A stretch of 64,000 bases of DNA from Escherichia coli (GTDB lineage: Bacteria; Pseudomonadota; Gammaproteobacteria; Enterobacterales; Enterobacteriaceae): assembly GCF_003991155.1 (NCBI RefSeq), contig NZ_CP031294.1, one strand, 5' to 3'. This document shows, in pieces, positions 2,454 through 64,000 of the stretch (position 1 is the stretch's first letter; each line of letters starts with the position of its first letter). The notes below the pieces were generated by a model that was given only the letters and a program-made list of their open reading frames with translations, was not told where the DNA came from and did not search any database. The position numbers were made by a program, and so were the translations under genes.

Positions 2454-3206
2454 TTAATCTTTTAGGTATAAACCTACTGGAGTTCTTGTTTTGCGGGAGA
2501 TGATAAGTACGATAAATTTCTGAACGTTAACTTGCACTTTGTTTGGGAGCCAAGAGCTTAACTCTGCATCAAGCAACAATCCTCTGTTCCACGGCAAAAA
2601 TCCGGTTTCTTTCCCCATCCCGTACTCACCTAACACATCTTCGAACGTTTCTGTTTTGGCATTGTATATACGCACATCGCCGGTTCGCATGAGAGGCCCT
2701 GCCCAGATCTTAGCACCAGGAATGGTTTGTGTATCGTCGCAGACTAAATGCTCATACCAATGAAGAAGAAAGAGATAGGTACGGTGACACAATCCTCGCT
2801 GACGACGCTCTCTGACAGTTTCGACACCAGCTACCTGGTAACATTCGATCTCATTACCGTCTTCAACAAAACTATATTCACGCAGAGCTATCCTACCAGC
2901 GATCGTATTTTTGTTTTCGTCCAGAAGCCCGGACTGGAGCACCTCTTTGATAATCTCTTCTTCAGGGGCATCTTCATCCGCTCGATCTAAGATGAATTCG
3001 CTCAGGTCGCCTTGGTCGCGCGCACCTACACGTTCCATAGAGACATACAGGCAAATGTCATCTTCTGGTTCAATGATTTCAATTTCTGAGATTTTATAGA
3101 GGTAGGCTTCATTGATAAGAAAGCCAAAACGAACAACACGAGTCTCCCCTTTATGAGGAAACTCGCTTAGATCTTTTGAATATGCGCTATCTAGTGTAGG
3201 AGCCAT
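2454..3206 (-). CDS. hypothetical protein
   Basis: 250 aa ORF, no recognised motif. Confidence 0.45.
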   Translation of the reverse strand: MAPTLDSAYSKDLSEFPHKGETRVVRFGFLINEAYLYKISEIEIIEPEDDICLYVSMERVGARDQGDLSEFILDRADEDAPEEEIIKEVLQSGLLDENKNTIAGRIALREYSFVEDGNEIECYQVAGVETVRERRQRGLCHRTYLFLLHWYEHLVCDDTQTIPGAKIWAGPLMRTGDVRIYNAKTETFEDVLGEYGMGKETGFLPWNRGLLLDAELSSWLPNKVQVNVQKFIVLIISRKTRTPVGLYLKD

Positions 3207-3574
3207 TTTGTAGCAGAATCATCAGCCTTAACCGTGCTGACAATGCTACCATGATTGCGTAAGAAGCGGCGAATAGAATGTTCAATAACCTCCGAAAAAG
3301 CCTCGATAAAACGAGACAGCTCAGGGTACTGTTTAGCTGGCTTGACTACAAAACGAACACGACCATTCAGGTAAATTGCTTCAGCTAATGGCTTCACGCT
3401 TGCACCAGCGCGCTCAACATCGTCTTTGAAGGTAACGATGAAGCGTGAGTCTTCCGGTTCAATAGCGTCATTATTGAGCTTACGTACTTCAAGCTTGTGC
3501 TGATTCAGCACATGAGTCTCGATAATACTCGTGCAATCGCGAATAGTTTGTATAGAACGTTTCTCGTTCAGCAT
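3191..3574 (-). CDS. hypothetical protein
   Basis: 127 aa ORF overlapping the downstream gene by 16 nt. Confidence 0.45.
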   Translation of the reverse strand: MLNEKRSIQTIRDCTSIIETHVLNQHKLEVRKLNNDAIEPEDSRFIVTFKDDVERAGASVKPLAEAIYLNGRVRFVVKPAKQYPELSRFIEAFSEVIEHSIRRFLRNHGSIVSTVKADDSATKWLLH

Positions 3575-9460: not shown

Positions 9461-9505
9461 GTTGAATATGCTCCTTGATTTGGCGGGTTATCCTTGCCCG
9501 CCATT

Positions 9506-9523
9506 AAGTAAATACTTACCTAT
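9506..9523. promoter_or_regulatory. family-1 motif TAAGTAAATACTTACCTA upstream of tail fibre gene, followed by a GC hairpin and SD
   Basis: Read directly. Confidence 0.5.
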
Positions 9524-22925: not shown

Positions 22926-22945
22926 TAGTAAGTATATACTTACTA
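22926..22945. promoter_or_regulatory. family-1 perfect 20-bp palindrome TAGTAAGTATATACTTACTA upstream of major tail gene
   Basis: Read directly. Confidence 0.55.
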
Positions 22946-35217: not shown

Positions 35218-35281
35218 TAAGTAATCACTTACTTATTATAATAGCCAAATAACATACAAAAGGCACTAAGGAAAGAGGTTT

Positions 35282-42701: not shown

Positions 42702-42764
42702 TTCACTCTCCGTAGTGTTTTGGTTATTTTTATATTCTATGATCGTAAGTATGTACTTACAATA

Positions 42765-53777: not shown

Positions 53778-56700
53778 ATGACTCATCAGACACACACCAT
53801 TGCTGAATCCAATAACTTTATCGTTCTTGATAAGTACATCAAAGCCGAGCAAACAGGCGACAGCTACCAGAGCGAATCGGACCTGGAACGTGAACTGATT
53901 CAGGATCTGCGGAATCAGGGCTATGAATTTATTTCCGTAAAATCTCAGTCGGCGATGCTGGCCAACGTTCGGGAACAGCTTCAGAGCCTCAATGGTGTGA
54001 TGTTTAATGACAGCGAGTGGCGGCGCTTCACGGAGCAGTATCTGGACAACCCCAGCGATGGTATTCTGGATAAAACCCGTAAAATCCATATCGACTATAT
54101 CTGCGACTTTATTTTTGACGACGGGCGACTTGAGAACATCTATTTGATAGATAAAAAGAATCTCATGCGCAATAAGGTGCAGATTATCCAGCAGTTTGAA
54201 CAGACGGGTTCTCATGCTAACCGTTATGACGTCACGATCCTGGTTAATGGTTTACCGCTGGTGCAAATCGAACTAAAAAAACGCGGGGTGGCGATTCGTG
54301 AGGCTTTCAACCAGATACATCGTTACAGTAAAGAGAGTTTTAACAGCGAAAATTCCCTGTTTAAGTATCTGCAACTGTTTGTCATTTCTAACGGCACCGA
54401 TACCCGTTATTTTGCCAACACGACAAAGCGCGATAAAAACAGTTTTGACTTCACCATGAATTGGGCGAAATCAGACAACACGCTGATTAAAGACCTCAAA
54501 GACTTTACCGCTACCTTTTTCCAGAAACATACTCTGCTGAATGTTCTGGTGAACTACAGCGTTTTTGACAGTAGTCAGACGCTACTGGTGATGCGACCGT
54601 ACCAGATTGCCGCCACCGAGCGCATTCTGTGGAAAATTAAGAGTTCCTTTACAGCGAAGAACTGGTCAAAACCGGAAAGCGGTGGGTATATCTGGCATAC
54701 TACCGGTTCTGGTAAAACCCTCACCAGCTTTAAAGCCGCGCGTCTGGCAACAGAGCTGGACTTTATTGATAAAGTCTTCTTTGTGGTCGACAGGAAAGAC
54801 CTCGATTACCAGACCATGAAGGAATATCAGCGTTTTTCGCCAGACAGCGTCAACGGCTCGGAAAATACCGCAGGCCTTAAACGAAATCTGGATAAGGACG
54901 ATAACAAAATTATCGTCACTACTATTCAGAAACTCAATAACCTGATGAAAGCAGAAAGCGACCTGCCTGTATATAATCAGCAAGTGGTGTTTATATTTGA
55001 TGAATGCCACCGCAGCCAGTTTGGAGAAGCGCAGAAAAACCTGAAGAAGAAATTCAAACGCTATTATCAGTTTGGTTTTACCGGCACCCCTATTTTCCCG
55101 GAAAACGCTTTAGGCTCAGAAACGACCGCCAGCGTATTTGGTCGTGAATTGCATTCGTATGTAATTACCGATGCGATTCGTGATGAAAAAGTGCTCAAAT
55201 TCAAGGTGGACTACAACGATGTGCGGCCACAGTTTAAATCTTTAGAGACAGAAACCGACGAGAAAAAACTGAGTGCGGCTGAAAATCAGCAGGCATTTCT
55301 TCATCCCATGCGTATACAGGAAATTACGCAATATATTCTGAATAACTTCCGCCAGAAGACCCACCGTACTTTCCCAGGTTCCAAAGGCTTTAATGCCATG
55401 CTGGCAGTGAGTAGCGTGGATGCCGCGAAAGCCTATTACGCGACGTTTAAACGGTTACAAGAGGAAGCAGCTAATAAATCGGCTACCTATAAACCGCTGC
55501 GTGTTGCAACAATCTTCTCCTTTGCCGCCAATGAAGAACAAAATGCCATTGGTGAAATTTCCGATGAAACTTTTGATACCAGCGCAATGGACAGCAGTGC
55601 TAAAGAGTTTCTTGACGCTGCAATTCGTGAGTATAACAGCTATTTTAAAACTAACTTCAGCACCGACAGTAACGGTTTTCAGAACTACTATCGTGATTTA
55701 GCCCAACGGGTTAAAAATCAGGATATCGATCTGTTAATTGTCGTTGGGATGTTTTTAACCGGCTTCGACGCTCCAACATTGAACACGCTATTCGTCGATA
55801 AAAACTTGCGTTTTCACGGCCTGATGCAGGCATTCTCCCGTACCAACCGCATTTATGACGCTACTAAAACCTTCGGTAACATCGTCACTTTTCGGGATCT
55901 GGAACGCTCAACCATTGATGCCATAACGCTGTTTGGTGATAAAAATACTAAAAATGTGGTGTTAGAAAAGAGTTATGCTGAGTATATGGAAGGCTTTACA
56001 GATGCTGCCACTGGTGAAGCTAAACGCGGCTTTATGGCAGTAGTTTCAGAACTGGAACAACGGTTCCCTGACCCTGCCAGTATTGAAAGTGAAAAACAGA
56101 AGAAAGACTTCGTAAAACTGTTTGGTGAATACCTGCGTGCCGAGAACATCCTGCAAAACTATGATGAATTTGCCACGCTGAAAGCCCTGCAACAAATCGA
56201 TCTTAGCGATCCTGTTGCGGTAGAAAAATTCAAAGCAGAACATTATGTGGATGATGAAAAGTTCGCTGAATTGCAAACAATTCGTCTCCCTGCTGAACGC
56301 AAGATTCAGGATTATCGTTCTGCCTATAACGATATTCGCGACTGGCAGCGCCGTGAGAAAGAAGCTGAGAAAAAAGAGAAATCAACCACTGACTGGGATG
56401 ACGTAGTTTTTGAGGTCGATTTGCTGAAGTCTCAGGAAATAAACCTGGATTATATCCTTGGACTGATTTTCGAACACAACAGACAAAATAAAGGCAAGGG
56501 CGAAATGATCGAAGAGGTCAAACGCTTAATTCGTTCAAGCCTGGGGAACCGGGCGAAAGAGGGCCTGGTGGTCGATTTTATTCAGCAAACGAACCTGGAT
56601 GATTTACCAGACAAAGCCAGTATCATTGAGGCATTCTTTACGTTTGCTCAACGCGAACAGCAACGTGAAGCAGAAGCATTGATAAAAGAAGAAAATCTCA

Positions 56701-56894
56701 ATGAAGAGGCGGCGAAACGCTATATTCGCACGTCTTTAAAACGCGAATACGCCACCGAAAATGGCACAGAATTAAACGAGACATTACCAAAACTTAGTCC
56801 GTTAAACCCGCAATATAAAACGAAAAAACAGACCGTTTTCCAGAAAATCGTCACGTTTATTGAAAAGTTCAAAGGAGTAGGTGGGCAGATATAG
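53778..56894 (+). CDS. hsdR: Type I restriction enzyme endonuclease/translocase subunit (EcoR124I HsdR-like)
   Basis: 1038 aa; SF2 helicase motifs (TGSGKT, DECHR), N-terminal nuclease domain; sequence recalled as very close to EcoR124I HsdR. Confidence 0.93.
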
Positions 56895-56952
56895 TGTATT
56901 AATCTGAACCAGATCTGGCAGACATCTGTGCAAATTGCAGATAGCTGTCAGA

Positions 56953-57363
56953 TCAAACCATCGTAGGGATGTTTGTATCCACTTTGAACTCAGGTACACC
57001 AACGAACTCTTTAACCTTCATCTGGTAGCCGGTTCTGTCAGTTTTGATGACTTCCTGTTTGCCCTCTATAAACTGCTCACGCCACTCGTCGCGACGGGAA
57101 GCTGGCATGATCAGCAAAACGTTAGTCATATCCGTGACCTTCCTCCAGTACTCGGCCCAAATATTCTGTTTCACCCATTCCAGATCGACTTTATCCAGCC
57201 AAGCTCGATTCAAACGTGAGCGTTCTTCATCTGGTCGATGGTTTAGTCTCAGCAGGCGATTAATCATGTTGTGGCGTTCGTCGCCATAAACGAAGTCGTG
57301 TACCTGATACATGAAGGCGATCTCTTTCTCGCACTCGGCCACGATTTCGTGGATGACATTCAT
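56953..57363 (-). CDS. hypothetical protein
   Basis: 136 aa ORF; heptamer repeat directly upstream of start. Confidence 0.45.
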   Translation of the reverse strand: MNVIHEIVAECEKEIAFMYQVHDFVYGDERHNMINRLLRLNHRPDEERSRLNRAWLDKVDLEWVKQNIWAEYWRKVTDMTNVLLIMPASRRDEWREQFIEGKQEVIKTDRTGYQMKVKEFVGVPEFKVDTNIPTMV

Positions 57364-57370
57364 TTCCTGC

Positions 57371-57398
57371 CGATAGTCGATAGTCGATAGTCGATAGC
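57371..57398. repeat. heptanucleotide tandem repeat (CGATAGT)x4, 8 bp upstream of the 57363 start codon
   Basis: Read directly. Confidence 0.85.
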
Positions 57399-57443
57399 AG
57401 CGTTTGAGTTGGGATCGTCGATGATGGAAAGGGCTGTATTCAT

Positions 57444-57484
57444 AATAGCACCATTAAGAAGTGATTTGTTTAATGGTGCTATTA
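57444..57484. terminator. 14-bp-stem hairpin (aatagcaccattaa...ttaatggtgctatt)
   Basis: Read directly; downstream of gene 57547..58218. Confidence 0.5.
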
Positions 57485-57546
57485 TTTCAAAAATGAAAAG
57501 GTACTAAATAGAAATAAACAGGCAATCCTTCAAATAAAGGCATTGG

Positions 57547-58218
57547 CTAATCATACTTGGAGGTATTTATCACCAGAATTTTGTTTGTATAAATCTTCTT
57601 AATATCCCATGTGACATTACCGGAATACCATTGACCGTTATATACTTGGTTTCCAGTTGCACCTGTCATTGTTACATAGACAGGTCTGTCGTAATCGGTT
57701 CGTCTATAGTTATATACTCCAACCATAGCAGGCATTACCGCACATGGATACCCCATATCTATTGTAAATTGAGGGTCAGAAATAGTGATAAGTTTCGCAT
57801 CAAGGGGCATCATCTCACCGTGATACACCATTGCGCCTGCGCTGTTATACATGGCAATGCCATAGCCAGAATGTGGTAACACCATATCAGAAAAAGCATA
57901 AACTGTTATTGTTCCGGGGCTACCATTTACCTGATGCAATCTGAGAGCATTGTATCCGTTACTATGTTCATGAATAAACATCATGTTCGCCTTATTACTG
58001 CTTTTTATGAAAAAAAAACATGATTTGTTTGATGGGATTGATGTTTGAAAAACAGAACCTTTAGATGTAGACATTGTCCCTTTATTAATCAGATTTTGCG
58101 GAGTAAATTCAGGACTCATCCACAAACTTCCATCTGATTGAGTAATTGACATCCCGAACATAATTATCCCCAGTATGTGTATATGTAAGAACCAAGCCCC
58201 GTATATAAATTTGACCAA
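57547..58218 (-). CDS. hypothetical protein (AT-rich; contains T9 homopolymer on coding strand)
   Basis: 223 aa ORF; overlaps upstream ORF by 55 nt in another frame. Confidence 0.4.
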   Translation of the reverse strand: MVKFIYGAWFLHIHILGIIMFGMSITQSDGSLWMSPEFTPQNLINKGTMSTSKGSVFQTSIPSNKSCFFFIKSSNKANMMFIHEHSNGYNALRLHQVNGSPGTITVYAFSDMVLPHSGYGIAMYNSAGAMVYHGEMMPLDAKLITISDPQFTIDMGYPCAVMPAMVGVYNYRRTDYDRPVYVTMTGATGNQVYNGQWYSGNVTWDIKKIYTNKILVINTSKYD

Positions 58219-58445
58219 CTAACCGTATTTCCATTAATAGTAACATTTGGAACAGGTAAATTGATGTAGTTGTCGTTGTTAAGAGGCATTAATGACCACA
58301 CGGCATGTAGTGATTTACCCGGTGGCGGATTAGAGTACGTCTTAGAGCCTGATGACGCCGTAAATCGATCAAGAAAAAAAATAGGTGTAAGGAAGCCAGT
58401 AACGTTAATTCCTTTATTGTTGTAAATCCCTGTACCGTATGCCAT
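58164..58445 (-). CDS. hypothetical protein (possibly N-terminal part of a frameshifted gene with 57547..58218)
   Basis: 93 aa ORF, AT-rich. Confidence 0.3.
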   Translation of the reverse strand: MAYGTGIYNNKGINVTGFLTPIFFLDRFTASSGSKTYSNPPPGKSLHAVWSLMPLNNDNYINLPVPNVTINGNTVSWSNLYTGLGSYIYTYWG

Positions 58446-58499
58446 TTTTCACCCTTGTTTTTATCAACACAATATGGCCGATCATGCGGCCATATCAGA

Positions 58500-59069
58500 T
58501 CAATTAGAGCTTTGAAAGACTTTGTGTGGTTGTGTTGCGAGGTTATGTCGATGGCTTAACTCACGCATCATGTCTTCAAGGCGACTCTTTGTGTCGTCGA
58601 GTTGGTCGGCCATTGCTCCCAAAAGCTGACGAACGGCCATAGGATCATCGCTGTTTAGTGATGGCATTTTATAACCCGCCTGAGAAGACATAAGATTGAA
58701 CGCAGACATCAACATCGTTAGAGAGGATTTAAGCCCAGCAATTTCACGATCTTTGCTGGCAATAATCGTCTCACTCTTGTTAGTGTCATCAGTTCGTTGA
58801 GTCTCGCTCACCATATCCAAAGTCGCCTGCAACTTATCAGCGCGCTCTTTTTCAGCAAGATAATGAACACCGAAATGATGTGCTAAAGCTACAACCTGAG
58901 TTGGCTCTTCAAAGGTGGACTCAAAATTAAGTGCTGTAACCACTCTCTCAAATATGGAAACGTCTTCTATTCCTCGAAGAATGGCTAACATTTTGACCAG
59001 TTCATTAGCATCCATTTCTTCGAATAAGGCGTTTTGTTCATCAGCTATCGCTTTGCATTTCTTGCACAT
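58500..59069 (-). CDS. hypothetical protein
   Basis: 189 aa; family-2 box upstream. Confidence 0.5.
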   Translation of the reverse strand: MCKKCKAIADEQNALFEEMDANELVKMLAILRGIEDVSIFERVVTALNFESTFEEPTQVVALAHHFGVHYLAEKERADKLQATLDMVSETQRTDDTNKSETIIASKDREIAGLKSSLTMLMSAFNLMSSQAGYKMPSLNSDDPMAVRQLLGAMADQLDDTKSRLEDMMRELSHRHNLATQPHKVFQSSN

Positions 59070-59084
59070 GTGTTTTTCCTAATT

Positions 59085-59119
59085 CTTAAACAAGTTGTTT
59101 TCTTATTGGCTTTATTGTG
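59085..59119 (-). promoter_or_regulatory. family-2 promoter/operator-like box
   Basis: cttaaacaagttgttttcttattggctttattgtg. Confidence 0.6.
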
Positions 59120-59366
59120 ATGTGGCATAAAAGGGGAGCAAGCTAAACGTAAAGGTGCAAACTCTCTATTTCGGTCAACGAAACACAAGGGCCATTTGGC
59201 CCTTGTTATTAACACGTTGCTTTACGGACTAGCGGATAAGCGAAGTAGATCGCCAGACCAATGAGGACGCCATCAGAAATGACAGACATCATCTTTCCCG
59301 TAAAATCCACCAACACCGCCATCACCAGAAGAGCAATGACGATCACAAGCCGGAATCTCTCAAGCA

Positions 59367-59792
59367 TTAGAGATAAGCATCCAGTGACAACTGAAGCGCC
59401 TGGGCGATCTTTTTCAGTGCCTGCTCTTCTTGTTCACCAATGCCATCCTGATCGGCAATATCAAGGCACAGACACAGAACATCGACCGCCTCTGGAGTAC
59501 CCGCAATATCAGACAGCTCACGAATAGCCTGTGCATTAGCAGAACGAGGGGACGCTTCGTAACGAGCACGGATATTGGCGCTCATTTGGGCAATTTCACC
59601 AGCAAACGGAGAAAACGCAGGCAGAGCTGCAATTGTCTTCTCAAGAATGGCAATTTCTTTTGCGTCACATGTGCCGTCGGCATAGGAGATCATGTACGCG
59701 CCCCACACGGTGGCCTCAACCGCATCACGGTTCTCCATTTTTTTGACTTCGATAACTGCTTTACGAGTTTTCTTTTTGAAGAAACCTAACAT
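59367..59792 (-). CDS. TerB-like (tellurite-resistance TerB domain) protein, tentative
   Basis: 141 aa; two D-x-DG-x-x-x-x-E segments (SYADGTCDAKE, IADQDGIGEQEEQA) as in TerB. Confidence 0.45.
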   Translation of the reverse strand: MLGFFKKKTRKAVIEVKKMENRDAVEATVWGAYMISYADGTCDAKEIAILEKTIAALPAFSPFAGEIAQMSANIRARYEASPRSANAQAIRELSDIAGTPEAVDVLCLCLDIADQDGIGEQEEQALKKIAQALQLSLDAYL

Positions 59793-59812
59793 GTGTTTTC
59801 CTTTTGTTATTT

Positions 59813-59838
59813 GTCAAAACAAGTTGTTTTATAGTTTC
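59813..59838 (-). promoter_or_regulatory. family-2 palindrome (aaaacaagttgtttt)
   Basis: Read directly, about 20 bp upstream of ATG 59792. Confidence 0.55.
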
Positions 59839-59885
59839 ATAAATTGCTTACGCAAAGATGGTCAATGCATATGCACTAACAGCCG

Positions 59886-60074
59886 TCAGAAATAACCAAG
59901 TACCGAACCGACTGGAAAAACAAAAATCCCAACTACACGAGCCAAGGTCATGCCAGCCTGAAACTGGAGATCGCCAGAGCAAACAAGTTTTATAATGTTC
60001 GATACCCAACCGGCGGCCATGAGGGCAAGAATTGCCAGCCAAATTTTTCCAAAGTGATTTGAAAACCAGTTCAT
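59886..60074 (-). CDS. small membrane protein
   Basis: 62 aa, two hydrophobic segments. Confidence 0.35.
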   Translation of the reverse strand: MNWFSNHFGKIWLAILALMAAGWVSNIIKLVCSGDLQFQAGMTLARVVGIFVFPVGSVLGYF

Positions 60075-60083
60075 ACAACCGCC

Positions 60084-60578
60084 TTAGTCACAGCATGATC
60101 CTGAGTAACCGGATGAACTTGAGGTATCGCATCCACCGTCATCCCATCCAGAGTGACAGGACGCTCTACTGGAGTGGTGGTAATTGTCGTCGACGGAGGT
60201 GTGGTGATGGATGAACCCGGCATCAAAAGGCTCTGGCCGGCTGGAACGGCTACCGTCGCCAGTGAAACTATAATGAGAACGTAGGCCATTGGTTTCAGCC
60301 TCTTTCTTTGAAAATTTTCCATTCGAACTGTCCTTGTTGTTTTTCTCCTTCACTAAAGGCCGTGTACTTTTCGCTTCGCGTGAAGAACCAGAGGCAACAA
60401 TCGCCCCCACGTTCGCAACAACTGACGCTTGATTATCTAAACGTTCATTCAGCAACCGAACGGTAGTCTCTAGTTCATCAAGACGTGACATAACACGACC
60501 GCTAAACAATTCGGCCAAAATTTGACGTAAAGAACGAGGACGTTTAGTTGCAGAAGTGAAATAGGTTTGACGTGCCAT
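60084..60578 (-). CDS. hypothetical protein (C-terminal half may be artefactual; a signal-peptide ORF is embedded in another frame)
   Basis: 164 aa ORF; embedded ORF 60071..60322 begins MAYVLIIVSLATVAVPAG. Confidence 0.3.
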   Translation of the reverse strand: MARQTYFTSATKRPRSLRQILAELFSGRVMSRLDELETTVRLLNERLDNQASVVANVGAIVASGSSREAKSTRPLVKEKNNKDSSNGKFSKKEAETNGLRSHYSFTGDGSRSSRPEPFDAGFIHHHTSVDDNYHHSSRASCHSGWDDGGCDTSSSSGYSGSCCD

Positions 60579-60723
60579 GTGGACTCCATCCAGTGTCAGA
60601 AAGAGTTGCGGCTGGCGATTGCCAGCCGCCTTTCTCGTTCCATCCTGGAACTGTGTCTTACCGACACATTGTCATCCTGACGCTGATAAGATACATGATT
60701 TAAAATGATAGGTAAACACTTAC

Positions 60724-61317
60724 TTACCACTTGTTATAAACAAAACCAATATCTTTCTTGTGAGGCATATCTGCTGCTGAAAAAGCTGCGATCTTCGCGA
60801 GTCGATCACATATTTCATTTTCACGATGCCCGGCGTGACCTTTAACCCACTTCCAGCGAACATTATGTCGACTTGCGGCCTCATCCAGACGTTTCCACAG
60901 ATCAACATTCTTTACCGGTTTTTTATCAGAAGTCATCCATCCATTACGTTTCCACCATTTCATCCACTGTGTCATGCCGTTTTTCAGATACTGGCTATCA
61001 GAGTACAAAATAACGTTGCATGGATATTTCAAACGCTCCAGCCCGATAAGTGCGCCCATCATCTCCATGCGGTTATTGGTGGTGCTATGAAAACCATCTG
61101 AGAACTCGCGTTCCTCACCACGATACTGGAGAACGATACCGTAACCGCCCGGGCCACCCGGATTTTTAAGGCAAGAGCCATCACTAAAGATTTTCACGGT
61201 TTTGAGCTGGGGATTGAACTCTACGACAGGCGTTGTGGGATTGGTGCGGGGAGAATTTTTGTTTTTGGCTTTTTTGCGAGTTTTTGCTTGCGATCGGGCT
61301 GGTGTCTTCGTCGTCAT
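60724..61317 (-). CDS. RNase HI-like ribonuclease with basic N-terminal extension
   Basis: Start set at ATG 61317 (MTTKTPAR) with AGGAG SD; four acidic residues align with the RNase HI catalytic D/E/D/D positions by recalled alignment to E. coli RnhA. Confidence 0.75.
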
Positions 61318-61900
61318 ATAAACTCCTGAATCAAGCGCCGCGCCGATTTTTTCCTCGCGCGTGCGCACACGCGTGCGTGTTAATAATTATTAAAATAAAC
61401 AAATTACTTCCCAGAACAGGTTTTTTATAAACCTGAACTGAACGAACGAAGTGAGTGAAGTTCACCTCGAACGAAGTGAGAGGTTGTCTTTTCAGGTAAT
61501 ACTCTCCCAGGGAGGTGAGTATAAAATTCCTCACCAACCTGGTCGTTTCATAACCTGAAAAGCTATGGTCTAAGTCTACTGCCAGCTTAGACTTGGGAAG
61601 TTATGGATGACAGCACCCCAGAACCGAGATCTTCCCACACTTTATGAAGGGGAGTACTGGATTCAACCTCTCGAAACACCCCAGACTCGACAATCATAAA
61701 GTGACCCTTGTCTCTGCTCACTTTGGTTCCCCCTTCCCCGACACCTAAACGGCACCGGTTCTACGCTGGTAGTGAGCTTTTTTAAACCTGACGCCAGTGA
61801 CGCTTACCCCCACCCATCAGGTCGAGTCTCCAGTCTACGACTGGAAACTATCAGATCTTAGCACTTACAATTCACTTTATGAATAGTTTGTACTTATCTA

Positions 61901-62155
61901 TCATTTCGATTGATTATTTTTTCGACCATGTAGTTGAACATTCAAGGCAAACACCTCGTTGATCAACTCACCTAAAAGCTGTTCAACAAGTTCGCGATGC
62001 TCCCCAAGATGCAAGCACTTAATTGCCCATTCGTACAAGTTGAAAGCCTGCTCACGATCTTTCATCATTTCACGAGCCTGGGCCAGAAAATCGCTCTCTA
62101 CGAGCGCAACGACATTAGTCGGATATGACATGTTGGTTTCCTTAAAGTGGTTCAT
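61901..62155 (-). CDS. small hypothetical protein
   Basis: 84 aa ORF. Confidence 0.35.
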   Translation of the reverse strand: MNHFKETNMSYPTNVVALVESDFLAQAREMMKDREQAFNLYEWAIKCLHLGEHRELVEQLLGELINEVFALNVQLHGRKNNQSK

Positions 62156-62228
62156 AAAATCGATTTTAAAGCGTCTGGGAAGGGGTTCTAGTGGATTCTG
62201 TAGTGGTGTTCAGGTCTGGGAGTCTCTG

Positions 62229-62289
62229 ATATAAAACAGCCTGCTTCCGTATATTAATAATTAATATGTAGTTATTTATATATACAGAA
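62229..62289. repeat. long imperfect palindrome (agcctgcttccgtatat-AT-rich core-atatacagaagcaggct), copy 2 of 2
   Basis: Read directly; same arms and orientation as 31926-31993. Confidence 0.7.
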
Positions 62290-62317
62290 GCAGGCTAATT
62301 ACAGACGCCAGAACAAA

Positions 62318-62911
62318 CTAAGCAGCCTTCTTTGATGGTCTTTTTTTCCTGATCACATTCGCAGGATCATACCCTCCCAGACTTTTCATGACGTCCAAAG
62401 GGATCTTGCTTATAGAGTGCCCAGCGTCCTGACAGAATCCTCGAAAAACAACGAGCATACTGCCACCGGGGTTGATGTTTACTTCTACCTGACCCAAATT
62501 GACGTCAGGCTCGACAAACGCTACGCGGCCACCAGACAGAATAATCGTCTCATTCGCACACTCTGTTGCACGCTCATACCACTTTGTATCGAGGGATTGA
62601 GGAATTAGCATCACTGTTGTAACTCCGCGAGCCTGCTCACGTATAGCCGCATCAATCCAGGGGGAGATTTTGGAGTAGGGTGGATTGAGGAAGGCAATTG
62701 TACCTGGCTGTCCCCATTCAGATTTCAAAGCATCACGCTCAACGCCTATGAAATTAGGCAGCTTCGCATTGTCCTTGTTGCAGGCAACGTCAACATCAAA
62801 TGTCACTCCAAGATAACGTTGAATGGCAGAAAACAGCCAGTCAGGTGTTCTCCAGAGGTCACGAAGAGAGTTGTCGCGCTTTCGCTGTTTGATTTTTTCG
62901 GCTGCAATCAT
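62318..62911 (-). CDS. phage-type DNA N6-adenine methyltransferase (Dam-like)
   Basis: FLNPPYSK catalytic motif, 197 aa. Confidence 0.75.
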   Translation of the reverse strand: MIAAEKIKQRKRDNSLRDLWRTPDWLFSAIQRYLGVTFDVDVACNKDNAKLPNFIGVERDALKSEWGQPGTIAFLNPPYSKISPWIDAAIREQARGVTTVMLIPQSLDTKWYERATECANETIILSGGRVAFVEPDVNLGQVEVNINPGGSMLVVFRGFCQDAGHSISKIPLDVMKSLGGYDPANVIRKKRPSKKAA

Positions 62912-62922
62912 CTTCTTTCTCG

Positions 62923-62942
62923 ATAGGTAAGTGATTACCTAT
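62923..62942. promoter_or_regulatory. family-1 palindrome ATAGGTAA-gtga-TTACCTAT, 12 bp upstream of the methylase start
   Basis: Read directly. Confidence 0.55.
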
Positions 62943-62976
62943 TTTTGCATTTGATTTTATGTCTGACAATCAAATA

Positions 62977-63020
62977 AAACGCGCCAGAAATGCAAACGAG
63001 AAGCTCTCTGGCGCGTTTTT
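62977..63020. terminator. hairpin with flanking A/T runs (aaaacgcgccaga...tctggcgcgtttt), candidate bidirectional terminator
   Basis: Read directly. Confidence 0.55.
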
Positions 63021-63094
63021 GTGGTGCTGGATATGTGATTGGCTTACCCAGCACTATAAAGCTCTCTATGGGCTTTATTTTCAGTAGGGGGACG

Positions 63095-63904
63095 TCATCC
63101 AATAGTGTACTCCGCTACAAACTTCTTAACGATCGGTGATTCTTCGTTCAATGTTAGATTTCCACCGTCTCTAACGGCAATTCCTGTCGCTGGAAATACA
63201 GCCATCATTTGCCCAGCCTGAGTTGACGCAGTGTTAAGCGGATACGGTTTTTCTGGATTGCTCATTAAAGCAATCTTAATACTATTACTTGTAGCCTTCT
63301 TTTCTGTGAGAAGGTGTCTCATGGAAATTACCGTGTAAACACTAATATCTGGACCTCCGCTAAACCAATTAAGAAGGTTTAATATCTTATCCTTTGCTTT
63401 GACAGGCGCGTTTTCGTAAGCGTCTAAGAAAATATCTGTTTCTAAGCCTGCTTTATTGAAAAACGAATCATCTTTATCACTTAAAGTAAAACGAGGACCT
63501 CTTGCAGTACGCGCTTTTTTATTTGTGTTGCTATCATTTGACTGTTGAACTTTTAATTCATCATTAACATCAACACACTCTTCAACCTCAATCAATCCCA
63601 ATTGTTCTGGCTCGTTTTCGGCAGATTCAACACTTTCAGCGTTAATTACGTTTATAGGCTCATGCGCTAACTCCAACTCATTTAAAGCAGAGCTGAAATC
63701 ACCTGCTTTTTCTTCATTGAACAGTTCTTCGGCAACATCATCAGAACTCATGGCTACGCCAGCATCGAGGCCGAGCAGCAGATCGTCAATATCATCAGTA
63801 TTTTCAACCTGTGCGGCTTTTTTTACTGGCTCATCAAGTGATTGCAACATGGCTGTCAGCTCGTCCAGATCATCATTTGCCATTACATTTTCAACCGAAC
63901 TCAT
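63095..63904 (-). CDS. acidic hypothetical protein
   Basis: 269 aa, very acidic N-terminal half. Confidence 0.45.
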   Translation of the reverse strand: MSSVENVMANDDLDELTAMLQSLDEPVKKAAQVENTDDIDDLLLGLDAGVAMSSDDVAEELFNEEKAGDFSSALNELELAHEPINVINAESVESAENEPEQLGLIEVEECVDVNDELKVQQSNDSNTNKKARTARGPRFTLSDKDDSFFNKAGLETDIFLDAYENAPVKAKDKILNLLNWFSGGPDISVYTVISMRHLLTEKKATSNSIKIALMSNPEKPYPLNTASTQAGQMMAVFPATGIAVRDGGNLTLNEESPIVKKFVAEYTIG

Positions 63905-64000
63905 GTAAGTCTCCTTCTGCTTGGTTACATTTGCGTTTCGATAGCTACATTTTGACTAAACCTATCAGGCGGAAAAGTATTAAATACAGGCAGGAAATGA

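Follow-up and report, generated by a model that had tools for sequence, protein, structure and literature searches.

The locus considered here belongs to a 64,000-nt stretch of Escherichia coli DNA (contig NZ_CP031294.1), called the window below, which is an SSU5/pHCM2-type phage-plasmid: the region and its flanks match that family. It lies inside a long minus-strand array of DNA-metabolism genes (nrdAB, thyA, dhfr, a 3'-5' exonuclease gene and dam), between a small gene of the phrog_5343 family and a gene for RNase HI (rnhA). There, a first-pass annotation made from the sequence alone had noticed about 500 bp of hairpin-rich DNA and proposed a structured RNA or an origin, or alternatively a phage small RNA or a long 5' leader. 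We find that the minus strand from 61848 down to about 61392 is very probably a gene in its own right, encoding a highly structured non-coding RNA of about 457 nt that SSU5/pHCM2-type phage-plasmids carry. The idea of a structured RNA is thus borne out by conservation, covariation, strand asymmetry, a conserved promoter and published RNA-seq; “phage sRNA”, on the other hand, was too modest a name, since about 457 nt and 17 helices make a large structured RNA.

Conservation, fold and expression of the RNA

With the RNase H protein as query we retrieved 79 IMG/VR loci, from which 59 distinct sequences were aligned; the counts on structure given below refer to 51 distinct sequences (alignment A1) and to their RNAalifold consensus. 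The core of the RNA (61826-61400) shows 88-95% DNA identity in lineages whose small gene and rnhA have 70-77%, and this identity falls to 42-60% in the 75 nt upstream and to 61-72% in the 80 nt downstream. A block of about 430 nt is thus sharply bounded and far more constrained than the neighbouring proteins, the variation of the small gene and of rnhA being mostly synonymous.

The consensus fold contains 17 helices and 134 base pairs. Pairing is kept in 99.4% of 6,828 alignment cells, against 35-48% when the partners are slid by 1-3 columns, and 14 pairs display compensatory changes on both sides. Compensatory cells number 160, against 44.7 +/- 6.6 in column shuffles, none of the 500 shuffles reaching the observed value. 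Compensation sits mainly in P0, P1, P2, P3, P5 and P8; most of the remaining pairs are uninformative because they are invariant. The same cells tell the strand: 99.4% of them are canonical when read as the minus strand and 88.3% as the plus strand, and on the minus strand G.U cells (771) so exceed A.C cells (15) that the RNA is assigned to this strand. Structure prediction, a check proposed by the first-pass annotation, gives for the minus strand a minimum free energy of -169.2 kcal/mol (z = -4.9; 0 of 100 shuffles fold equally well), that is 32 kcal/mol better than the plus strand (-137.6 kcal/mol, z = -3.8). The RNA is G-rich, with a GC skew of +0.14 and 10 G-runs versus 3 C-runs.

The stem-loops and the direct repeat pointed out from the sequence all find a place in this fold. 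The stem-loop ggtgag-N10-ctcacc is the apical stem of P6 (61542-61530 with 61519-61507); aagtct-N11-agactt is helix P5 (61592-61568), which has compensatory changes; and ccagtc-NNN-gactgg is the heavily covarying P0 (61848-61826), with a loop that is tac in the plus-strand and gta in the minus-strand reading. The direct repeat corresponds to an exact 13-mer, CTCACTTCGTTCG on the minus strand, taking part in hairpin P7: it occurs at 61443-61455 and at 61468-61480, nowhere else in the window, and the spacer together with the second copy folds into the hairpin. Several helices speak for themselves. P1 keeps G.U pairs compatible with the minus strand only; pair 111:169 of P2 is seen as UA, CG or UG, changes in P2a being one-sided only; P3, like P5, shows compensatory changes, and its helix P3a appears from the alignment to be kept in a shifted register in two lineages; the apical pair of P8 covaries between UA and GC. 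A U-rich tract follows P8 in four of the five lineages, and conservation ends there.

Beyond this point, the GC palindrome that had been noted beside an AT-rich block is confirmed as the tract 61356-61380 next to the AT palindrome TTAATAATTATTAA (61380-61393). It is a perfectly alternating purine-pyrimidine tract of 25 nt, CGCGCGTGCGCACACGCGTGCGTGT, prone to form Z-DNA and including a 5-bp hairpin, and is followed on the minus strand by GAGG and a run of six A (61347-61356). The GC tract and the A-run are semi-conserved in all lineages, one of which lengthens the GC tract to (CACG)n. The distance from the predicted start of the RNA to the A-run is about 500 nt.

Upstream of the RNA, in a flank otherwise variable, the pattern G-T-n-n-T-A-n-n-A-T is invariant in the 51 sequences, and a TTnAnn -35 box with a 17-bp spacing is present in all five lineages. 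The predicted start is the invariant G at 61848, seventh base downstream of the -10, which opens the protective hairpin P0. We set the 5' end from this putative promoter, and the 3' end from the U-rich tract and the conservation boundary; from its sequence, the U-tract is inferred to be an atypical terminator. A generic promoter scan did not call the RNA promoter (8/12 matches, below threshold), nor did a generic terminator scan call P8 and the U-tract, so that both ends of the RNA are predictions.

RNA-seq, another of the proposed checks, agrees with a discrete transcript. Misson et al. (2023) re-analysed RNA-seq of E. coli LF82, the host of the phage-plasmid Cyrano (PMC9928086), which is 97% identical. 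The annotation of Cyrano places within the RNA a 44-aa “hypothetical protein”, CYRAN_81 (L002 4288-4422), equivalent to positions 61587-61721 of the window. In LB lysogens its normalised counts are 113 and 121, those of the small gene, RNase H and dam being 9.5, 8.4 and 6.0 respectively (PMC9928086). Abundant transcription in lysogens is thus confined to the RNA stretch, about 12-fold above either neighbour, with rnhA at background. In log2 fragments per kilobase per million (fpkm), CYRAN_81 stands at 6.9 in LB and reaches 9.0-9.3 and 10.3 under cell-culture and macrophage conditions, its neighbours remaining at 2.6-5.8 (PMC9928086): the RNA is induced about 10-fold in cell-culture medium and macrophages. 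The same study lists CYRAN_81 as a hypothetical-protein “moron”, 12-fold over the background/Cyrano median, and reports for Cyrano 5.5 copies per cell, the other lysogen-expressed genes being mostly toxin-antitoxin genes (PMC9928086). These data indicate that the RNA is made autonomously in the plasmid-prophage state, which fits a promoter of its own, and that most transcripts stop before rnhA. On the same element CYRAN_43, another “hypothetical protein” found 723-fold above background in lysogens (PMC9928086, its Table 1), may be a further unrecognised RNA or a toxin-antitoxin component.

Could the conservation be explained by a short protein-coding gene, either CYRAN_81 or a type I toxin? 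The annotators of Cyrano did call a 44-aa ORF (open reading frame) here, and those of SSU5 extended RNase H over the region. However the CYRAN_81 ORF carries indels of 1 and 2 nt differing among lineages, the sense strand has no ATG ORF of at least 12 aa and no hydrophobic peptide, and the substitutions are compensatory in the stems rather than three-periodic. Frame-breaking indels and the lack of an ATG ORF exclude coding, and we give this explanation next to no credit. A type I toxin-antitoxin mRNA of the hok/sok type was rejected as well, the candidate ORFs being hydrophilic or broken by 1-2-nt indels. The earlier statement that the region has no ORF of at least 60 aa needs one correction: its rnhA-proximal edge is entered by two mechanical TTG ORFs (Table 1), both of which cross the indel-rich AT spacer and so should not be conserved. 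Annotators have dealt with the locus in other ways: the RNase H gene of SSU5 (SSU5_090, L003 3410-4174), 765 nt long, is over-extended across the RNA; that of NZ_AP027904.1 is annotated with 648 nt (L083 19425-20072), both versions starting inside or beside the RNA; and all 30 RefSeq records listed have zero annotated features beneath the RNA match.

The covariance-model check did not lead to a known family. With Rfam 15 we obtained no match at gathering thresholds over the 64 kb and none with permissive filters over 55000-64000; the families without match include RNase P, tmRNA, 6S, group I and II introns and riboswitches, and also OLE, GOLLD, ROOL, HEARO and raiA. The best sub-threshold match in the region, to an HCV element (E = 0.64), covers the GC tract, outside the RNA. 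ARAGORN found no tRNA or tmRNA, and a literature search no description of any RNA at this locus. The RNA matches no described RNA family. An antisense regulator with a target in the window was also considered and rejected: a single complementary 12-mer is present, which we estimate to be about chance, and there are no complementary targets of at least 13 nt elsewhere in the 64 kb.

Table 1. Coordinates of the features discussed (positions in the window unless another locus or record is named)
Feature	Position	Strand	Description and evidence
Structured RNA gene	61392..61848	-	~457 nt; conservation, covariation, strand test, folding energy, Cyrano RNA-seq
Putative sigma-70 promoter	61855..61883	-	-35 TTCATA 61883-61878; 17-nt spacer; extended -10 TGcTAAGAT 61863-61855
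P0, 5'-terminal hairpin	61826..61848	-	hypervariable sequence, hairpin kept; 6/9 pairs changed on both sides
P1, long hairpin	61785..61823	-	G-rich 5' strand GGGUGGGGG; 15 pairs, 3 compensatory
P2 domain	61716..61777	-	closing helix, inner hairpin P2a 61758-61738, invariant single-stranded GGGGAAGGGGGAACC
Central multi-helix domain P3-P6	61478..61714	-	long-range closing helix 61714-61704 with 61484-61478
P3; P4; P5; P6	61703-61638; 61637-61594; 61592-61568; 61562-61488	-	consensus structure
P7 block	61443..61484	-	longest invariant stretch, 46 nt; identical in 51/51 sequences
3' part	61392..61442	-	P8 hairpin 61442-61410, invariant CUGGGAAGUAA, U-rich tract 61403-61392
Spacer between RNA and rnhA	61347..61393		AT-rich variable stretch, palindrome, GC tract, GAGG + A6
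RNase HI gene (rnhA)	60724..61317	-	197 aa; basic N-terminal extension of ~38 aa; PHROG 531, E = 1e-80
Small conserved gene	61901..62131	-	76 aa, phrog_5343; constant upstream neighbour
TTG ORF	61331-61537	-	68 aa
TTG ORF	61233-61430	+	65 aa
TAAGTA palindromes	9505-9518; 22929-22942; 35218-35235; 42746-42759
Near-copies of the palindrome	61886-61898; 60709-60726
Imperfect palindrome copy GATAAGTACAAAC	61886..61898	-	just upstream of the RNA -35; alignment
13-mer box, Enterobacter phage EC-W2	L268 1375-1540		upstream of uvsY
13-mer box, Yersinia phage JC221	L269 1350-1530		upstream of gene 3
13-mer box, three metagenomic T4-like groups			beside uvsW/uvsY or gene 55
13-mer box, further coordinates	L239 9026-9254; L243 1103-1136; L250 104-137
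Clade-B RNA	L259 3266-3750		K. oxytoca pCAV1099-111; also L260-L265

Distribution, neighbours and a counterpart in a sister clade

The RNA is present in 684-686 plasmids of PLSDB (blastn, word size 11, against 72,556 plasmids), about 1% of this database, from Klebsiella, Escherichia, Enterobacter, Salmonella, Citrobacter, Cronobacter and Shigella. Nearly all of these plasmids measure about 105-115 kb, and the annotated examples that we fetched are IncFIB. The blastn matches are only to large (about 60 kb or more) plasmids of Enterobacteriaceae, 676 of the 686 being predicted non-mobilizable, and all the listed plasmid matches are syntenic phage-plasmids. Twelve phage records match the region, among them SSU5, Cyrano, PhiR41_1 and Klebsiella phages, and motif scans of IMG/VR return the same family only. 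Among complete E. coli genomes, 231 of 5,426 (4%) carry the RNA, nearly always on the plasmid; blastn against these genomes matches phage-plasmids alone, and the idea that the RNA mimics one of the host was rejected.

RNase H is the usual yet dispensable downstream neighbour of the RNA. Among loci with enough downstream sequence, 64 have the RNA with RNase H, and seven the RNA without RNase H or with a C-terminal remnant of it (for example Enterobacter p3804_3, where betT comes next, and E. coli S56 plasmid B); no SSU5-type RNase H without the RNA was seen among the loci examined. In the RNase-H-less variants unrelated genes have taken the place of rnhA and the RNA is 95% identical; everything from the AT spacer through the alternating GC tract to the GAGG-A-run is retained, and divergence begins directly past the A-run. 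Residues 39-193 of the enzyme are about 60% identical to chromosomal RNase HI (62% at most among the matches listed). Besides, two contigs of a different phage (L064 and L065; IMG/VR 3300029577_000167 and 2534681663_000013, positions 3000-3550) carry a catalytic domain 82% identical in DNA to that of the window, lacking the N-terminal extension, the RNA and the synteny, which suggests a recent exchange of the RNase H domain alone.

For the small upstream protein, no informative PDB or Pfam match was found. We set it aside as a partner of the RNA because it exists without the RNA in a third clade described below and because its expression is low. PADLOC 2.0 assigned no family to RNase H (three variants), the small protein, phrog_10411, phrog_6006, the TerB-like protein or DUF3927. 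Downstream of rnhA, the 5' untranslated region of the phrog_10411 gene has a weak CsrB-like match (60637-60682, minus strand, E = 0.24) made of two GGA-loop hairpins, UCAGGAUGA and CCAGGAUGG, and may thus be a leader bound by CsrA. The DNA past the RNA and RNase H genes serves as a hot spot for cargo (L083 4355-7646 in NZ_AP027904.1; L236 174-2171), where related plasmids carry metG with apbC, a type I restriction-modification system, betT or the Ant antirepressor.

Taking the small protein as a synteny anchor in 727 plasmids, we found a second RNA in the same slot. In clade B (30 Klebsiella plasmids of the pCAV1099-111 type) the order is dam, small gene, about 570-650 nt of unannotated DNA, RNase H, TerB and DUF3927. 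The core of the clade-B RNA, about 435-485 nt, folds at -178 kcal/mol (z = -6.2), with 13 compensatory pairs in seven sequences and 111 G.U versus 6 A.C cells. Its layout also is familiar: a palindrome over the stop codon, then a -10-like TGnTATSAT, then a covarying first hairpin. No Rfam match was found for it. Homology between the RNAs of the two clades was not detected: the clade-A nhmmer profile matches nothing in L259 or L260, blastn at word size 7 gives matches of 11 nt or less only, and covariance model R1, covering P1-P2 of the 5' domain only, has zero matches in the clade-B RNA, its best match elsewhere (E = 0.57) being off-target on the other strand. Between the clades Dam is 72% and TerB 82% identical, the small protein about 50% and RNase H 38-53%; the inner genes and the RNA thus diverge far beyond Dam and TerB, in a cassette-like behaviour. 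In K. oxytoca and K. michiganensis (L259 3796-4359) Asn and Ser replace the catalytic Asp10 and Asp70 of the RNase H-like protein, and the GH motif is absent, so that, judging by these residues, an RNase H fold that is probably inactive stands beside an intact RNA. One clade-B plasmid keeps the RNA without RNase H and aligns only up to a matching CGAG and A-run. In a third clade (Moellerella, Providencia and Pectobacterium) the small gene is present; the RNA and RNase H are both absent.

Two short motifs of the locus recur elsewhere. The 13-mer, extended as ACTTCA-CTCACTTCGTTCG-TT, is found in intergenic cassettes of unrelated T4-like phages (Table 1), often as inverted arms that enclose an AT-rich stretch of about 100-130 bp; next comes a sigma-70-like early promoter or, in JC221, a T4-type late-promoter motif, TATAAATA. 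As the P7 hairpin is not conserved in these cassettes, the box itself appears to be the recognised unit. Tandem-repeat matches to CACTTCGTTCG, with periods of 15-30 nt in unrelated viral contigs, were set aside, since we estimate them to be about chance and one of them (L247) is coding. The second motif, TAAGTA-N0-8-TACTTA, has four copies in the window where 0.02 would be expected, each in a short gap just 5' of a gene start, a placement suggestive of an operator or promoter element used by the phage-plasmid. The imperfect copy lying before the RNA is a possible operator; the same spot is occupied by GGTAAGTACTTACC in the Klebsiella and Salmonella lineages and by TAAGTAACAATTTACTTA in clade B.

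Possible functions of the RNA

The leading reading, to which we give a probability of about 0.3, is that the RNA acts as initiator or primer in an RNA-based module, either an auxiliary origin or a copy-control device. Some transcripts would fail to stop at the weak P8/U-tract and enter the AT-rich spacer and then the GC-rich block, where the read-through transcript might form a stable RNA:DNA hybrid. RNase HI, that encoded next door or the host enzyme where the gene is lost, would cut this hybrid at the GAGG-A6 run, and the RNA 3' end so produced would serve as primer for DNA synthesis. Whether the hybrid forms would depend, as in ColE1 RNA II, on the elaborate conserved fold. Speaking for it are the order RNA then RNase H, which recurs in clade B with a non-alignable RNA, the edge of the module at the GC block and A-run in both clades, the cassette-like divergence, the G-rich RNA and its expression in the plasmid state. 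A precedent also exists in extrachromosomal mycobacteriophage prophages: the region from which they replicate expresses in lysogeny a non-coding RNA that is required (PMC7157519).

A number of observations weigh against this proposal. We found no similarity to ColE1 replicons, either by sequence among the 72,556 plasmids or by covariance model; no RNA I (RF00106), with permissive filters over 55000-64000 or at gathering thresholds over the whole window; and no plausible antisense promoter or terminator over the 5' end of the RNA, the sole plus-strand promoter-like site (61842-61871) being directed away from it. MOB-suite already assigns the plasmids to replicon classes (IncFIB in this clade), so that the proposed origin would be a second one. 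RNase H is lost in seven RNA-bearing loci, and the K. oxytoca-type protein is without its catalytic Asp residues. The DNA that leads from the RNA core to the GC block differs among lineages in both sequence and length and comes after a U-rich tract, and the third-clade element, a phage-plasmid of about 105 kb, lacks both partners. There is no GC-skew or gene-orientation switch at the locus, which is uninformative for a phage genome. Altogether, the RNase-H-processed origin is the leading specific mechanism and is unproven; for the RNA gene and the primer mechanism taken together we consider the odds about even.

In a broader and equally tentative form, the RNA and the RNase H(-like) gene, perhaps with the small gene, might constitute an unrecognised exchangeable module of phage-plasmids, acting through an RNA:DNA hybrid or an RNA-RNase H complex. 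If so, it could serve as a second origin or a copy-control device based on RNA, or as a system of addiction or exclusion built on RNase H, and the non-alignable RNAs of clades A and B would represent alleles of different specificity, in the manner of incompatibility or immunity types.

Among the rival functions the one we would weigh most, although we hold it unlikely, is an immunity or attenuation RNA of the P4 CI, P1 c4 or N15 type, that is a lysogen leader RNA forcing termination before the downstream genes by RNA-RNA pairing in cis, or in trans after processing, with rnhA, the accessory genes and, in SSU5, the antirepressor as targets. Autonomous lysogen expression with rnhA at background would suit it, as would the position of the RNA, co-oriented with and upstream of an operon that includes Ant in SSU5, and the presence of different RNAs in the same slot across clades, like heteroimmune alleles. 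Moreover ACUUCCCA (61600-61593) can pair with the upstream UGGGAAG (helix P4) or with the invariant UGGGAAGU, 2 nt before the U-rich tract. We take this alternative pairing to resemble the seqA/seqB/seqC logic of phage P4. But it shows no covariation, because all the candidate pairing segments are invariant; Rfam C4 (RF01695) is not matched, with nothing at E <= 1; about 457 nt and 17 helices contrast with immunity RNAs of about 80 nt; Ant is absent downstream in the E. coli lineage; and no complementary target of at least 13 nt was found elsewhere in the window. An antitoxin-like RNA inhibiting the adjacent RNase H(-like) protein, in a layout of type III toxin-antitoxin kind, is rather improbable. 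The order RNA, weak terminator, nuclease, with read counts of 117 for the RNA and 8.4 for RNase H, presumably mirrors ToxIN. The losses are asymmetric (seven RNA-only loci, no SSU5-type RNase H-only locus), as expected if only the “toxin” can be safely lost, one sub-clade has its RNase H apparently inactivated, and the other lysogen-expressed genes of Cyrano are mostly of toxin-antitoxin systems. On the other hand the RNA is not repetitive, its sole repeat being the 13-mer present twice and a tandem array being absent; RNase HI is not a known toxin; PADLOC matches none of the proteins; and so heavily structured an RNA would be an odd labile antitoxin.

An RNA acting in trans on the host or on other mobile elements, as a scaffold, decoy, sponge or self-assembling particle (GOLLD/ROOL-like) without any link to RNase H, lies between the immunity RNA and the antitoxin in credibility. 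It is favoured by a discrete transcript, abundant in lysogens and about 10-fold induced in cell-culture medium and macrophages, by its persistence without RNase H, and by extremely conserved loops and junctions, with a 46-nt invariant block, which suggest conserved partners; it leaves unexplained why an unrelated RNA precedes RNase H in clade B, and we detected no E. coli sequence mimicry, partner or target. The long 5' leader raised by the first-pass annotation, here a riboswitch, thermosensor or processive-antitermination element of the rnhA operon, is disfavoured and has poor odds. The RNA is indeed co-stranded with and directly 5' of rnhA, with no canonical terminator between them, yet in lysogens the reads drop about 12-fold from the RNA to rnhA, down to background; the RNA persists, 95% identical, where unrelated genes replace rnhA; it is far better conserved than rnhA; and a spacer of varying sequence and length precedes the ribosome-binding site of the latter. 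Lastly, the block might act as DNA: it could hold the iterons of an origin, be a site of packaging or recombination, or fold as single-stranded DNA into an initiation signal. The 13-mer direct repeats, which are invariant, are iteron-like, they recur in inverted-repeat cassettes around AT-rich DNA in T4-like phages, and covariation alone would fit RNA as well as folded single-stranded DNA; but the conserved promoter 7 nt upstream, the abundant transcription limited to this stretch, the strand-specific G.U pairing through about 450 nt and the absence of a GC-skew or gene-orientation switch make a DNA element very improbable.

Significance and comparison with known systems

Whatever its function, the RNA belongs to an unannotated, expressed and covarying class that is widespread in clinically relevant phage-plasmids and has a non-homologous counterpart in a sister clade. 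Published work on SSU5/pHCM2-type elements reports the spread of resistance genes, and these phage-plasmids are common in clinical Enterobacteriaceae. What is best conserved in this region encodes no protein but an unannotated RNA, on in the dormant state and higher in macrophages. To our knowledge few large and intricately folded bacterial RNAs exist; those characterised are ribozymes, ribonucleoprotein cores or self-assembling particles. The new class combines clean covariation and a record of expression with hosts amenable to genetics (E. coli K-12 lysogens of PhiR41_1, or LF82/Cyrano), which makes direct tests possible, and if the RNA controls replication, immunity or maintenance it would give a handle for curing or typing these elements. 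A more immediate consequence concerns annotation, where the same RNA has received three treatments: a hypothetical protein in Cyrano, an over-extended RNase H in SSU5, and nothing in the RefSeq records listed.

With the known systems the RNA shares some traits and lacks others. The P4 CI, P1 c4 and N15 CA RNAs are also RNAs of phage-plasmids or satellites, with a constitutive lysogen promoter upstream of a silent operon (including Ant in SSU5) and with internal complementary repeats that could drive termination here; they differ in being about 80 nt long and in forming one Rfam family, without match at this locus. Type III toxin-antitoxin systems of the ToxIN type likewise align a promoter, an abundant RNA, an attenuating terminator and a nuclease, the nuclease being here lost or inactivated while the RNA stays; in contrast to them there is no tandem repeat array, and the enzyme is RNase HI, not a ToxN or AbiEii-type endoribonuclease. 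As for GOLLD and ROOL, the resemblance lies in a non-coding RNA of more than 400 nt, borne by mobile elements, with many helices and strong covariation; the difference lies in the absent Rfam match, in the Enterobacteriaceae phage-plasmid hosts and in the lysogenic expression that is documented here.

Closer to the primer proposal are the parABS-bearing cluster A mycobacteriophages (Wetzel et al. 2020, PMC7157519), where the prophage is extrachromosomal and a lysogenic non-coding RNA region, not a lytic gene, is the notable transcript. They belong to another host phylum; those phages lack RepA, whereas SSU5-type elements are IncFIB-typed; and an RNase H gene beside the RNAs is not reported for cluster A, the term “RNase H” occurring 0 times in that article (PMC7157519). 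The last comparison is with ColE1/pMB1 RNA II. The present locus departs from it by the lack of sequence or covariance-model similarity and of an RNA I-type antisense gene, by the IncFIB type already present, and by the U-tract and variable AT-rich spacer that separate the RNA core from the putative hybrid site. It resembles it by an untranslated, folded and G-rich transcript of about 500 nt, constitutive in the plasmid state, and by a GC-rich stretch with an A-run about 500 nt past the start; and RNase HI, which processes the ColE1/pMB1 primer, is here encoded next door.

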